Origin: Christensenellales bacterium
Lineage (GTDB): Bacteria; Bacillota; Clostridia; Christensenellales; UBA1242
DNA: 64,000 nt
NCBI GenBank assembly: GCA_051889995.1
Contig: JBJFDL010000002.1
Location: forward strand, 145,051-209,050
Reading direction: 5' to 3'
Numbering within the stretch: the first letter of the stretch is position 1; every line of letters starts with the position of its first letter. A program made the position numbers and the translations under genes. The notes under the pieces were generated by a model, which had not been told where the DNA came from, searched no databases, and was given only the letters and a program-made list of their open reading frames with translations. Below, piece after piece: positions 13,631 to 21,033 of the stretch.

Positions 13631-13678
13631 TGGTACAACCGAGATGATTTGAACATCCGACCTATCGCTTAGGAGGCG
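13631..13678 (-). pseudogene. Detached 3' half of a tRNA-Arg(CCT) gene (anticodon loop to CCA)
   Basis: Minus strand reads CGCCTCCTAA-GCGAT-AGGTC-GGATG-TTCAAAT-CATCT-CGGTTGT-A-CCA. This is an anticodon loop and 3' stem arm, a variable loop, a T arm, a 3' acceptor arm and an encoded CCA. There is no 5' half upstream of it. Confidence 0.7.
13668..13678. repeat. att core copy (left junction)
   Basis: CTTAGGAGGCG, identical to 20994-21004. Corresponds to the anticodon loop plus stem arm of tRNA-Arg(CCT). Confidence 0.75.
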
Positions 13679-13845
13679 TTTGTCGGCTCACAAAATACTT
13701 CAAATAACTTGTGAAACTTGTAGTCTTATTAAATGTTAGAATAAAATTCATTTAGTATTGTTAAAAATGAAAGTTTTTTCAAATAAAATTAAAAATAAAA
13801 AGTTGGCTCACAGTATGGCGTGAGATGTCTAAACCATCTTTATAC

Positions 13846-13860
13846 CCTTTAACTTGTATA
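13846..13860. repeat. 15-bp inverted-repeat arm upstream of rep
   Basis: CCTTTAACTTGTATA is the perfect reverse complement of TATACAAGTTAAAGG at 14903-14917. Confidence 0.8.
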
Positions 13861-13900
13861 AAAAGTAAAACATCAGGTTGAAGTTAAAGGAGATAATGAT

Positions 13901-14767
13901 ATGGAAAAGAGCAATTTAATAAAAGATAATCATTTAGTTAAAGTAAAAATAATCGGCAACGATTTAGAACTTTATAACATAAACACTTGTAATTATAAAC
14001 CAACAATAAAAAAATTGCAAGGTAGAAAACATATAATTTTAAGAACAGGTGAAATTGTAGAAGAAAAGCAATCTCTTATAAGAGGCGAAAATGCTAGGAC
14101 TTTGTTAGAAAGTAATATACGGCTACGAGATTTAATAAAAGAAAATACGATTGAGTTATGGAAAACGCTTTTAATAACTCTAACCTACCGAGATAAAATA
14201 CTTGATATAAAGAAAATCAAACTTGATTTCAAACACTTTATAAACTATTTAAGAAAGCATTTTACACAATTTGGCAACATTGAATATATACAAGCCATTG
14301 AGCCATTTGACGATTTACAAGGTTATCATTTACACGCAATACTATTTTTCAATGATAGCAAAGCAAAAGTCTTTATGGGCTTTGAAGTGCTTGAAAAAGC
14401 GTGGAAAAATGGTTTTGCAAGTATCTGTCAGCCAAAAGATGAAAAATCAATGTATTTATATATTACGCCACATTTAGAAAATGAAGTCAGCGATAAAAAT
14501 ATAGATATGCACCAAAAAGCATTAAATCAAATGCAACTACCAGCAGGCACAAACTTATATAGTTATTCAAAAGGCATAAAAAAGCCACAAATTTGGACTG
14601 ATAACTATGCAGAAGTCAAAAAGTATTTAGTTGAAAACAAATATGTCTATCAGCGAGAAAACATTTATAAAAATGAAATGTCAACTCTAAAAGGCAACAA
14701 TCTTTATTATTGTAAAGAGTTTTATAAAAAAGAAATGGATGTTAAACCAACGAGAAAGCCGATTTAA
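13901..14767 (+). CDS. HUH-type rolling-circle replication initiator (Rep)
   Basis: Motif 1-like LLITLTY, HUH motif GYHLHAILFF, and downstream Tyr-containing MYLYITPHL. SD GGAG upstream (AAGGAGATAATGATATG). Confidence 0.7.
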   Translation: MEKSNLIKDNHLVKVKIIGNDLELYNINTCNYKPTIKKLQGRKHIILRTGEIVEEKQSLIRGENARTLLESNIRLRDLIKENTIELWKTLLITLTYRDKILDIKKIKLDFKHFINYLRKHFTQFGNIEYIQAIEPFDDLQGYHLHAILFFNDSKAKVFMGFEVLEKAWKNGFASICQPKDEKSMYLYITPHLENEVSDKNIDMHQKALNQMQLPAGTNLYSYSKGIKKPQIWTDNYAEVKKYLVENKYVYQRENIYKNEMSTLKGNNLYYCKEFYKKEMDVKPTRKPI

Positions 14768-14902
14768 GCAATGTTTTAAGTGGCTATGTAGTATTTAATA
14801 TAATGTCTTATATTAAACACAAATTGACCTAAAATTGTAGTTGAAAAAAGAAAAATGAAACAGAGGGAATATATGTCAAATTTGACCCAATGTTTCATTT
14901 TT

Positions 14903-14917
14903 TATACAAGTTAAAGG
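14903..14917. repeat. 15-bp inverted-repeat arm downstream of rep
   Basis: TATACAAGTTAAAGG, partner of 13846-13860. Confidence 0.8.
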
Positions 14918-14973
14918 AAAAATATTGAATGTCTTGTCTTTTGGCAAGTTTTAAGGAATAATTTTTATGTCAG

Positions 14974-15285
14974 TTAATTTTTAAGCAGGTTTATTATAGA
15001 GTCTTTTTTGACTTGATTTACATTTTTAAGCAAGTCAATTATCTCTTTATCTTTTTGATAATCATAGATATTGTAGTAAAAGAACTCTAACGGAGTTGAG
15101 CCACACGCTTCAATTATTTCAAGTAAGGCAGAAACGGACGGCTCAAAACTATCATTTTTAGACTCAAGGCGAGAGATATAAGCACCATTTTTACCAATAC
15201 GCAAACTTAAATCTCTGGCAGATAAGCCTGCTTTAATTCTTAACTGACTAATACGCTCAACAACTTCATTTTTATTCATAGGCAT
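14974..15285 (-). CDS. XRE-family helix-turn-helix transcriptional regulator
   Basis: RISQLRIKAGLSARDLSLRIGKNGAYISRLE is a typical Cro/CI-type HTH. Divergent from the cargo operon. Confidence 0.8.
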   Translation of the reverse strand: MPMNKNEVVERISQLRIKAGLSARDLSLRIGKNGAYISRLESKNDSFEPSVSALLEIIEACGSTPLEFFYYNIYDYQKDKEIIDLLKNVNQVKKDSIINLLKN

Positions 15286-15378
15286 ACCTCACATTTTTAA
15301 CTACTAAAATTATAAGGTATTATTGACCTACACTATCTTGATGATACTTGTAAAAATGACATATTGTGAAATTGTAAT

Positions 15379-19278: not shown

Positions 19279-19279
19279 T

Positions 19280-20683
19280 ATGGCAACATATAGTAAAAGA
19301 GTGTTACAAGACGGCACAATAAATTATTGTATTCAAACATATATAAGAGATGCAAATGGCAAGAGAATATATAAGTGCACCACTTATAAAAATGAAGATA
19401 ATTTGTCTGGTAAAAAACTAGACAAAGCACTTCATGCTTTTGGTGAAGCATGGGAAGAAAGAATTAAAACAGGTAAAAACAATAAGTATGAAGATTACAC
19501 TTTTAATCAAATGGCTGACTTATGGCTTGACACAAGAAAAGACAATATGTCTAAAAACTATTATGTTAGAGCAAGTGAGTGTTTGGTAAAACTTAAAGCA
19601 TTTTTTGGCAATACAAAATTTTCAGACATAAGAGCCATTCATGTGCAAGACTTTTTTAGAGAGTTGAGTAAATATGAATTTACTACAAAAAAGGCTCGTA
19701 TTAAACCAAATAAATTAGATTATGTAAATAACATTATACTAAAGTATGGTCTTAGAAAAGCCGACAAAGACGGCGAAACAACAAGAGCAACGCTTTATTA
19801 TGCACGAAAAGGCGAAGTCATAAATTATGAAAGTGCTGTTATCATTTGTAAAAAATTTGGTTTTAGATTAAATGAAACTTTTGACATAATAGAAGAAACA
19901 CATAGATATAAAAAAGAAACAATCTTAAAATATCAAAGAGTTTTAAGTGCCATTTTCGCCTATGCAATTAGGTCTGAATTGGTGAAAACAAACTACGCTG
20001 CTAAATACTACACAAAAGATAGTATCGGTGGCGAGAAAGCCAAAGAAATACCTATTTTAGATAATAGTGAGTATGACAGACTTATTGAAACTCTAAACAA
20101 TGATAATGATTTATTTCACACAATCCCCATATATTTACTGGCTACACTTGGTTTAAGAACCTGTGAGGTTTGTGGTTTGCAGTGGCGAGATATAAATTTT
20201 GATAAGAAAACCGTCAGCATAAAAAGAGATAGGACTTATGTCAATAAAGAATTTGGTTGTCAAGTTGATGATACAAAAACAAAGTATTCAAAACGAACTT
20301 TGACAATGTGTGATTTGTTATTAGATAAGTTAAAAGAGTTTAAATCAATTTATGATGAACTTAAAAATGGCGATAAAGAGTTTGACGCAACAAATGACGG
20401 CTTTATATTTTGTGATATAAAAGGTCAACCAGTATTCCCACATCACTTAAACGAAATACTAAAAAAGTATTTGATGATGGCAGATTGTAAAATTGTGTCG
20501 TGCCATAAAATAAGGCATAGTTGGATAACACGCCTTATAAGTAATGGTGCACCTGTAAACATTGTTTCAAAGTTAGCAGGTCATGCTGGAATAGATACGA
20601 CTTTGAAATTATACGCACATTATTACGGCGAATTAGATAACTCACTTGAAATGTTAAATGAGATATTTATAAGTCAAAAATAA
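19280..20683 (+). CDS. Tyrosine recombinase / integrase
   Basis: Catalytic residues in context: GLRTCEVCGLQWRDI (R), HKIRHSW (HxxR), AGHAGIDTTLKLYAHYY (H...Y). Adjacent to a tRNA gene. Confidence 0.88.
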   Translation: MATYSKRVLQDGTINYCIQTYIRDANGKRIYKCTTYKNEDNLSGKKLDKALHAFGEAWEERIKTGKNNKYEDYTFNQMADLWLDTRKDNMSKNYYVRASECLVKLKAFFGNTKFSDIRAIHVQDFFRELSKYEFTTKKARIKPNKLDYVNNIILKYGLRKADKDGETTRATLYYARKGEVINYESAVIICKKFGFRLNETFDIIEETHRYKKETILKYQRVLSAIFAYAIRSELVKTNYAAKYYTKDSIGGEKAKEIPILDNSEYDRLIETLNNDNDLFHTIPIYLLATLGLRTCEVCGLQWRDINFDKKTVSIKRDRTYVNKEFGCQVDDTKTKYSKRTLTMCDLLLDKLKEFKSIYDELKNGDKEFDATNDGFIFCDIKGQPVFPHHLNEILKKYLMMADCKIVSCHKIRHSWITRLISNGAPVNIVSKLAGHAGIDTTLKLYAHYYGELDNSLEMLNEIFISQK

Positions 20684-20720
20684 TAAGAAATTAAAATGTA
20701 AAAACATAAAATTAAAAAAA

Positions 20721-20760
20721 TGGTAGGTATCACATAAAGATAACCTACCATTGACTGTTT
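20721..20760 (+). terminator. Probable terminator downstream of int
   Basis: TGGTAGGT-N14-ACCTACCA hairpin followed by a T-rich tract. Confidence 0.5.
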
Positions 20761-20783
20761 TCTCTTATACAAGAAAACGATTG

Positions 20784-20858
20784 TGGTGTTCCCCGCGGTA
20801 ATCGAAACCACATCTAATCCTTAGGAGGGATTTGTTCTATCCGTTGAACTAGGGGAAC
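20784..20858 (-). tRNA. tRNA-Arg (anticodon CCT), intact, CCA encoded
   Basis: Hand-folded cloverleaf: GTTCCCC-TA-GTTC-AACGGATA-GAAC-A-AATCC-CTCCTAA-GGATT-AGAT-GTGGT-TTCGATT-ACCGC-GGGGAAC-A-CCA. All stems pair, with one G-U in the T stem. Confidence 0.85.
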
Positions 20859-20993
20859 ATATAAAAAGTTATAAAAATTTGGGTTAAAGATGGTAAAAAG
20901 ATGTTTTTTTTGAAAAATACTTTTTCGTCTCGCTACAAAATCGCTAGTAAAATCAATAGTTTTGAGAGATTTTTAGGGTGGATTTAAGGGCGC

Positions 20994-21004
20994 CTTAGGA
21001 GGCG
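20994..21004. repeat. att core copy (right junction)
   Basis: CTTAGGAGGCG, identical to 13668-13678. Confidence 0.75.
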
Positions 21005-21033
21005 ATCGCTCTATCCAGCTGAGCTACGGCTGC
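20994..21033 (-). pseudogene. Detached 5' half of a tRNA-Arg(CCT) gene (acceptor 5' arm to anticodon loop)
   Basis: Minus strand reads GCAGCCG-TA-GCTC-AGCTGGATA-GAGC-G-ATCGC-CTCCTAAG, then continues into non-tRNA sequence (GCGCCCTTAAATCCACCC...). No T arm or 3' acceptor arm follows. Confidence 0.7.

Follow-up and report, generated by a model that had tools for sequence, protein, structure and literature searches.

We consider it highly probable that a small integrative element, located in a 64,000-nucleotide stretch of the genome of a Christensenellales bacterium (positions 145,051 to 209,050 of contig JBJFDL010000002.1, assembly GCA_051889995.1; hereafter the window), splits a resident tRNA-Arg(CCU) gene at its anticodon loop, leaves the gene unrepaired and supplies a tRNA-Arg(CCU) gene of its own. 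The two halves of the resident gene, the matching cores at which they are broken, the lack of a rebuilt tRNA, the intact replacement, the conserved layout and an older layer of integration can all be observed directly. A preliminary description of this DNA had proposed such an arrangement for the window, and the layout is now found to be common to 34 loci.

On the minus strand, positions 21033 to 20994 read GCAGCCGTAGCTCAGCTGGATAGAGCGATCGCCTCCTAAG, which is tRNA sequence that begins with the acceptor stem, extends across the anticodon loop and then gives way to non-tRNA sequence. Positions 13678 to 13631 of the same strand read CGCCTCCTAAGCGATAGGTCGGATGTTCAAATCATCTCGGTTGTACCA, the matching 3′ half. 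Both halves are exactly as first described, and each includes one copy of the plus-strand 11-mer CTTAGGAGGCG. These two copies, the left core (13668–13678) at the junction distal to the integrase gene (int) and the right core (20994–21004) at the int-proximal junction, are separated by 7,315 bp. No third copy exists in the window, and the 11-mer had 0 matches across 100 dinucleotide-preserving shuffles. Nothing beyond this 11-bp core is repeated between the element ends.

When positions 13679–21004 are removed in silico, ARAGORN recognizes a 77-nt tRNA-Arg(cct), thereby reproducing the cloverleaf that had been predicted. The 5-bp anticodon stem of the rejoined tRNA, whose anticodon is CCT, is perfect, and two pairs of the 7-bp acceptor stem (1-72 and 4-69) are G-U. 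It is of the type that begins with GCAGCCG and differs by a single base (U72 versus C72) from intact genes of 36 species representatives. Four of these neighbors (from loci numbered L017, L025, L037 and L053) score between 65.5 and 67.6 bits with Rfam, values that belong to the intact genes and not to the rejoined sequence. The presence of U72 in the 3′ half is compatible with decay after disruption, although a single change is weak evidence for it.

Neither junction yields a tRNA with ARAGORN or with Rfam, even at E≤10 (11–22 kb scanned), which agrees with the earlier claim that the gene is not rebuilt at the int-proximal side. The element also differs from classical islands that restore the tRNA gene (tDNA), since non-tRNA sequence lies past the int-proximal core and no tDNA is duplicated beyond the 11-bp core. 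A functional two-piece tRNA assembled from the separate halves can be ruled out, because the halves lack complementary leaders and there is no promoter upstream of the 3′ half.

The sole intact tRNA that ARAGORN and Rfam find in the window is the element's tRNA-Arg(CCU) at 20784–20858 (minus strand), which has the same orientation as the split gene. This gene, of the GTTCCCC type, scores 60.4 Rfam bits against a threshold of 29 and is very different from the split gene, as had been noted before. It is located 135 bp inside the right, int-proximal end of the element, and this interval (20859–20993) forms the right arm of the inferred element attachment site (attP).

Alignment of 18 distinct intact tRNA-Arg(cct) genes revealed compensatory changes in 16 of the 19 base pairs and no broken pairs, so the cloverleaf is kept. 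The sole invariant block among these tRNAs is CCTCCTAAG, whose plus-strand form is the minimal core CTTAGGAGG, comprising the anticodon loop and its closing base pair. Hybrids made from a resident half and an element half are not recognized as tRNAs by ARAGORN. This result indicates that classical rebuilding could not work here, and that a classical attP carrying the 3′ half alone would suit only hosts with matching stems.

An alternative is that the gene at 20784–20858 is the ancestral host gene and that the two halves are unrelated debris of old integrations. Serial integrations do occur at such sites, and the window contains an older integrase remnant (see below). However, the halves rejoin to a sequence 1 nt from genes that are intact in 36 species representatives. 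Moreover, the intact gene lies between the cores and adjoins int just as it does in every relative, and the same tRNA type occurs as an orphan half in locus L032. We therefore regard this alternative as very improbable.

Even less credible is the explanation that the contig is a chimera joined within tRNA-like repeats. Logan contigs of two samples do end inside the element tRNA, at 20813 and 20840. Nevertheless, the two contigs have 28 identical bases in common where they overlap, pairing in the acceptor and anticodon stems is perfect across the join, and independent assemblies of many samples contain this layout without interruption. Logan contigs of SRR30616813 match the window at 100% identity. 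The contig ends are a curious feature in their own right: the Logan contigs of SRR30616813 and SRR30616822 all stop in the anticodon arm of the element tRNA and share exactly the 28-mer at 20813–20840. This would fit a variant in a subpopulation that has only this stretch in common with the window, such as a further element in the element tRNA or another tRNA.

The integrase family to which the element belongs (family A) is small, with 33 clusters at 41–58% identity. The gene order in relatives is Rep, variable cargo, a helix–turn–helix (HTH) regulator, an Xis-like protein, a small open reading frame (ORF), Int, and an intact tRNA-Arg(cct) on the opposite strand. Beyond the tRNA are an arm of 130–190 bp, the anticodon loop TTAGGAG and the 5′ half of another tRNA-Arg(cct). 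This layout was seen in each relative with enough flanking DNA (L004, L008–11, L012–15, L062–64 and L067–72). The one exception that we met is L066 (2694–3200), where a 50%-identical integrase adjoins a tRNA-Arg(cct) and no core or orphan half occurs in the next 500 bp.

More broadly, among 53 intact tRNA-Arg(cct) genes examined, 34 have behind them an arm (125–242 bp), the loop and at least one orphan 5′ half of a different tRNA-Arg. Two or three orphan halves are stacked in seven of the loci (L019, L024, L032, L034, L048, L052 and L072). Because this nonrestoring layout is kept in 34 loci whose integrases are as little as 30% identical, a classical island whose left junction decayed later is ruled out.

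A genome-wide scan located the resident GCAGCCG 5′ half in 44 species representatives. These are Clostridia-type metagenome-assembled genomes with the taxon labels Christensenellales, Lachnospiraceae, Eubacteriales and even Bacilli. In 8 of the 44 the half is split exactly at the loop, and an intact tRNA-Arg(cct) lies 125–320 bp inside the element in all seven split loci that have enough upstream DNA. The other 36 genes are intact. Behind 17 of these lie a conserved arm (mostly exactly 126 bp), TTAGGAG and the orphan 5′ half of a tRNA of another type, an arrangement by which the GCAGCCG tRNA is itself recognizable as an imported copy.

Four complete elements (the window, L008, L012 and L045) are flanked by halves that rejoin to a tRNA-Arg(cct). 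Their cores are 8–11 bp long and always include the 7-nt loop TTAGGAG, and the start-to-start spacing of this motif is 7326 bp in the window, 8383 bp in L008, 8024 bp in L012 and 6712 bp in L045. The search for an unoccupied site in related genomes succeeded for the L008 element, since the tRNA is intact in L037 and the right flanks of the two loci have 98.3% identity over 3.2 kb, but not for the window's own locus.

The carried-tRNA strategy is not restricted to Arg-CCU. At a tRNA-Ile(GAT) gene (L075, 11295–11610) and a tRNA-Arg(TCT) gene (L085, 11461–11800), the intact tRNA is likewise accompanied by an arm, then the same anticodon loop and then an orphan 5′ half from another tRNA of the matching isotype. 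The integrases of these two loci are 25–31% identical to that of the window. In contrast, two tRNA-Thr(CGT) loci (L081 at 2648 and 10646; L082 at 1468 and 10343) are classical, with the 3′ half and its flank duplicated and the tRNA rebuilt. Their integrases have 23% identity to the window integrase, and thus both modes occur in one integrase superfamily, for which the two loci act as an internal control.

Several loci show further variations. In L004, an intact GACCTCA-type tRNA (3597–3671) and an arm precede the left core (3856) in place of a 3′ half. This left side resembles the right end of another element, so reshuffling of junctions can occur among stacked elements. Likewise, in L050 the 3′ half is of the GTGGATA type, whereas the 5′ half is of the GCAGCCG type. 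In L060 (∼7000–7176) and L061 (∼6000–6164), a 56%-identical integrase is followed by the T-arm-like sequence GGAATCGAACC and an unusually long stretch from which ARAGORN calls no tRNA; a different or interrupted tRNA target could be involved. The L012 element tRNA (11775–11849) has an A/T-rich D arm, GTAAAAGGGATATTAC, and is called by ARAGORN, whereas an Rfam scan of multiple loci at the gathering threshold did not report it. The missing report may be a filter effect or may reflect an unusual tRNA. Finally, L147 (MT835493.1, 40060–49328) has the integrase, tRNA-Arg(cct), arm and orphan half within a 57-kb “Bacteriophage sp.” record from human feces, which could represent either bacterial DNA from a virome or a phage that carries an integrated element.

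The mechanism that best accounts for these observations is recombination by the tyrosine integrase between a short attP core and the anticodon loop of any resident tRNA-Arg(CCU) gene, with a crossover inside the 7-nt loop that would be performed by the element's own integrase. Because core and target are identical over just 8–11 bp, insertion divides the resident gene and leaves no tRNA at either junction. The whole tRNA gene carried ∼135 bp inside the int-proximal end, oriented as the destroyed gene, would then compensate for the loss. An element that brings a whole gene would have no need for stems that match the target, and thus any tRNA-Arg(CCU) could be entered, including that of an earlier element. 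Over time the separated halves would decay, as C72U may exemplify here, and lock the tRNA cassette in place.

Under this scheme, the predicted attP is ..GGGCGC-CTTAGGAGGCG-TTTGTCGG.., for which the junction GGATTTAAGGGCGCCTTAGGAGGCGTTTGTCGGCTC was used in searches, and the predicted repaired chromosomal site (attB) is ..CCTATCGC-TTAGGAG-GCGATCGC... The two arms of attP have an inverted 10-mer, TAAAGATGGT, and an AGTATGG-like motif in common, positioned as in L004 and L008. These motifs are candidate arm-type integrase sites, which would explain why the tRNA is ∼135 bp off the core rather than at the core. Upon integration, the element tRNA ends up downstream of the resident promoter region, which it may use. 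We infer that the element tRNA is expressed and compensates. It may also stabilize the element, as the preliminary description suggested.

Several results weigh against this interpretation. The circular attP junction that the preliminary description predicted had 0 matches in metagenome contigs and IMG/VR, which bears on the mobility of this copy. No terminal overlap indicative of circularity was found in 6- to 7.5-kb contigs with close integrases, and none of ∼60 loci is a syntenic empty site for the flanks of the window (AAA_5, RluA-like, DinB-like and the 458-amino-acid ORF). No strong sigma-70-like promoter was found in the arm. In addition, AGG is rare in the host, where it accounts for 2.0 per 1000 codons and 8% of Arg codons, so tRNA-Arg(CCU) may be dispensable. 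Lastly, precise excision would restore the resident gene, and therefore the tRNA is no simple addiction module.

The dispensability argument leads to an alternative in which the carried tRNA is not compensatory. It could instead translate element genes richer in AGG or counter defenses that target tRNAs, with disruption of the resident gene being incidental; tRNA-Arg(CCU) would be dispensable because AGG is readable by tRNA-Arg(UCU). Consistent with this possibility, AGG occurs at 6.4 per 1000 codons in the element genes, 3.3 times the host value (Fisher p=9e-4). However, the carried anticodon is always that of the split gene, in the 34 Arg(CCU) loci as well as in the Ile(GAU) and Arg(UCU) relatives, and the carried tRNA is always beside attP and oriented as its target. 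Moreover, the tRNA cassette persists after the rest of the element has decayed, with integrase remnants standing alongside intact tRNAs in the window, L025, L037, L040, L045 and L058. This persistence fits a gene that is needed by the cell. We therefore consider noncompensation unlikely and favor replacement of the lost gene, for which codon supply is a possible additional or alternative benefit.

The preliminary description had placed the split in a host tRNA gene. The split stands, but the gene is not a pristine host gene; judged from its surroundings, it came in as the tRNA cassette of an earlier element, now decayed, that belonged to a second integrase family (family B). Upstream of the split tRNA by 1.5 kb, positions 11819–12139 (plus strand) encode the last 107 amino acids of a family-B tyrosine integrase, with in-frame stop codons upstream of the remnant. 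The product has 95.3% amino acid identity to residues 357–463 of the intact 463-amino-acid integrase of L053 (IntB), and is only 32% identical to the window's own integrase. At the nucleotide level, at least 16 loci have int 3′ ends with 77–91% identity to the remnant, located upstream of GCAGCCG-type tRNAs. Most of the 44 loci have an IntB gene, whether intact or truncated, at a distance of 1.6–4.8 kb upstream of the GCAGCCG tRNA, and family-B elements carry exactly the tRNA type that is split in the window. The close match between the remnant and integrases that accompany this tRNA indicates that the window is a two-layer nest.

Other traces fit this outer layer. A 458-amino-acid ORF of unknown function (12215–13591, plus strand), for which no Pfam, PHROG or PADLOC family was found, lies between that remnant and the split tRNA, in the position of the cargo slot that spans 1.6–4.8 kb in family-B elements. 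On the right side, the upstream flank of the resident tRNA (21034–21080) is homologous to the start of the family-B arm, and the tRNA half plus these 47 nt (87 nt in total) has 84–86% identity to L045, L048, L044, L059 and L034. To the right of 21033, Rfam at E≤10 (11–22 kb) did not find truncated tRNA matches, an older core or the 5′ half of an original host gene, and the rest of the family-B arm is missing. The history of the window is thus probably that a family-B element left an integrase remnant, one cargo gene and its tRNA, and that a family-A element then split that tRNA and supplied a new one. The alternative of serial integrations raised in the preliminary description is correct to the extent that this older family-B layer, with its integrase remnant and tRNA, exists; the view that the newer element splits the gene and supplies a substitute still holds.

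These patterns prompt the tentative proposal, for which we would claim somewhat less than an even case, that the tRNA-Arg(CCU) locus of many gut Clostridia is a self-renewing landing pad in which each imported gene becomes the next attB. If this hypothesis is true, then the sole tRNA-Arg(CCU) gene in dozens of species is what the last visiting element left behind, acquired horizontally and not inherited vertically. The decay of split halves would act as a ratchet that fixes the module of integrase remnant, cargo and tRNA. The proposal would also explain the extreme diversity of tRNA-Arg(CCU) stems around an invariant 9-nt core, as well as the identical GCAGCCG 5′ half and near-identical gene in 44 species.

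The mechanism matches that of tRNA-dependent lysogeny and is not categorically new. In that system, a tyrosine integrase uses an attB within a tRNA gene and a core of 8–17 bp, and the tRNA is not rebuilt (PMC10865867). The loss is complemented by a phage-encoded tRNA of the same isotype, and experiments showed that this tRNA is required (Guerrero-Bustamante and Hatfull, mBio 2024, PMC10865867). The actinobacteriophages described as dependent on this process are Fionnbharth K4, cluster L, Gaia, BrutonGaster, OneUp and Mollymur (PMC10865867). The window element is alike in having its integrase beside attP, an attB in a tRNA gene, a short core (11 bp here) and a carried tRNA of the same isotype, and in both systems classical and nonrebuilding relatives coexist within one integrase family. 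The two differ in their targets, which are Lys-UUU, Ile2-CAU and Leu-CAA in Actinobacteria, whereas here they are Arg-CCU (Ile-GAU and Arg-UCU in relatives) in Clostridia. The known carriers are temperate phages, in contrast to the 6.7- to 8.5-kb Rep/Int/Xis elements without virion genes described herein. Also distinctive are the location of the tRNA directly beside attP in the orientation of its target, the retargeting of imported tRNAs and the stacking of orphan 5′ halves. The requirement for the carried tRNA is experimental for actinobacteriophages and is a prediction here.

Prophage Lj965 of Lactobacillus johnsonii has been cited as a probable case outside Actinobacteria (PMC10865867). As described in that paper, it is similar in its Bacillota host, in the lack of a rebuilt tRNA at the junction and in the cognate tRNA that it carries, although it is a full prophage, unlike the window element.

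A second comparison is with islands found by the Islander principle, in which the gene is made whole again by a tDNA fragment contained in attP, and the displaced fragment corresponds to part of the restored copy (PMC4383910). Islander site A islands likewise have a tyrosine integrase, an anticodon-loop crossover and int at the tRNA end of the element. However, there is no such restoration in the window, and the intact tRNA differs from the halves that flank the element. Tandem arrays of such islands resemble our loci in the reuse of one tRNA site and in the several tRNA fragments left behind. Those arrays leave 3′ fragments, each with its own island, whereas here the newcomer destroys the previous tRNA and orphan 5′ halves stack beside the newest intact gene. 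Full-text literature searches turned up no account of these clostridial elements, nor of tRNA genes being overwritten serially. The new aspects are the nonphage carrier, the new phylum, the new tRNAs, the wide prevalence and the relay-like overwriting of tRNAs.

Integration that depends on a carried tRNA, for which experimental evidence is limited to actinobacteriophages, would thus extend to small nonphage elements in Clostridia of the gut and rumen, and to other tRNAs. A consequence that is undescribed for the phages is that a tRNA gene is overwritten serially and turned over horizontally, with fragments of elements being retained because the functional tRNA resides in them. Methods that find islands by a restored tDNA and a matching fragment will miss these elements or assign them wrong boundaries, and orphan 5′ halves will confuse tRNA annotation. 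Because the integrase would need the loop only and the tRNA is portable, the system could be an attractive integration tool with broad host range for Clostridia that are hard to engineer.

The nine genes of the element comprise Rep, regulators, variable cargo, an Xis-like protein and the tyrosine integrase. The left arm of the inferred attP (13679–13900), which has the motifs in common with the right arm, extends from the core to a putative rolling-circle replication initiator (Rep; 13901–14767, plus strand). This protein matches PF23343 (REP_ORF2-G2P; E=3.5e-10, 40.5 bits, cut-off 27.8) and phrog_3419, and its counterparts in L004, L008, L012 and L062 are 41–56% identical. An HTH_3 regulator follows on the minus strand (14974–15285). 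A second HTH protein, which is repressor-like, is encoded on the same strand at 17820–18455. The Xis-like HTH_17 protein (18746–18937) and a conserved 112-amino-acid ORF (18940–19278), both on the plus strand, are at the same positions in relatives, where they are 52–55% and 40% identical, respectively. The 467-amino-acid family-A tyrosine integrase (19280–20683, plus strand; PF00589, E=4e-23) has R293, K333, H409, R412, H435 and Y445, which are invariant across 26 homologs, and 311 bp separate its gene from the right core. NCBI annotates this integrase as that of a Christensenellales metagenome-assembled genome.

Searches of the nine genes against Pfam and PHROGs revealed no virion, structural, packaging or lysis families. 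IMG/VR holds no relative of the window integrase, and the closest GenBank phage integrase is only 30% identical. Two small fecal “Bacteriophage sp.” records (L145 and L146) contain no tRNA and are uninformative. A plasmid search with the whole element gave no match. We conclude that this small integrative element, whose replication gene is of plasmid type, behaves like an integrating plasmid and not like a prophage.

The cargo block (15396–17705, plus strand) encodes an Nmad3-domain protein (15396–16307; PF18754, E=7e-45), a 59-amino-acid zinc-ribbon protein (16310–16489) and a 403-amino-acid multipass membrane protein (16494–17705) whose translation has hydrophobic segments. None of the three has a PDB or PADLOC match. 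PADLOC analysis of all element proteins returned generic HTH matches only and no defense family. The cargo slots of sister elements (L004, L008 and L012) hold TIR_2, HEPN AbiU2, AAA_15/AAA_21, NB-ARC and Nmad3 genes. The TIR, NB-ARC, AAA_15/21 and HEPN cargo of these relatives raises the possibility that such elements are a vehicle for anti-phage defense genes.

Directly to the left of the old integrase remnant, a minus-strand group of genes (7199–11392) encodes a 770-amino-acid AAA_5 ATPase and neighbors of 143 and 491 amino acids. These genes have no convincing PADLOC match and could be either cargo of the decayed outer element or a defense-like operon of the host. To the right of the tRNA site, beyond DinB-like and RluA-like genes, a single ORF of 6,976 amino acids occupies positions 23622–44552 (minus strand); the Logan gene call of this ORF, which has no Pfam match on record, is 6,973 amino acids long.

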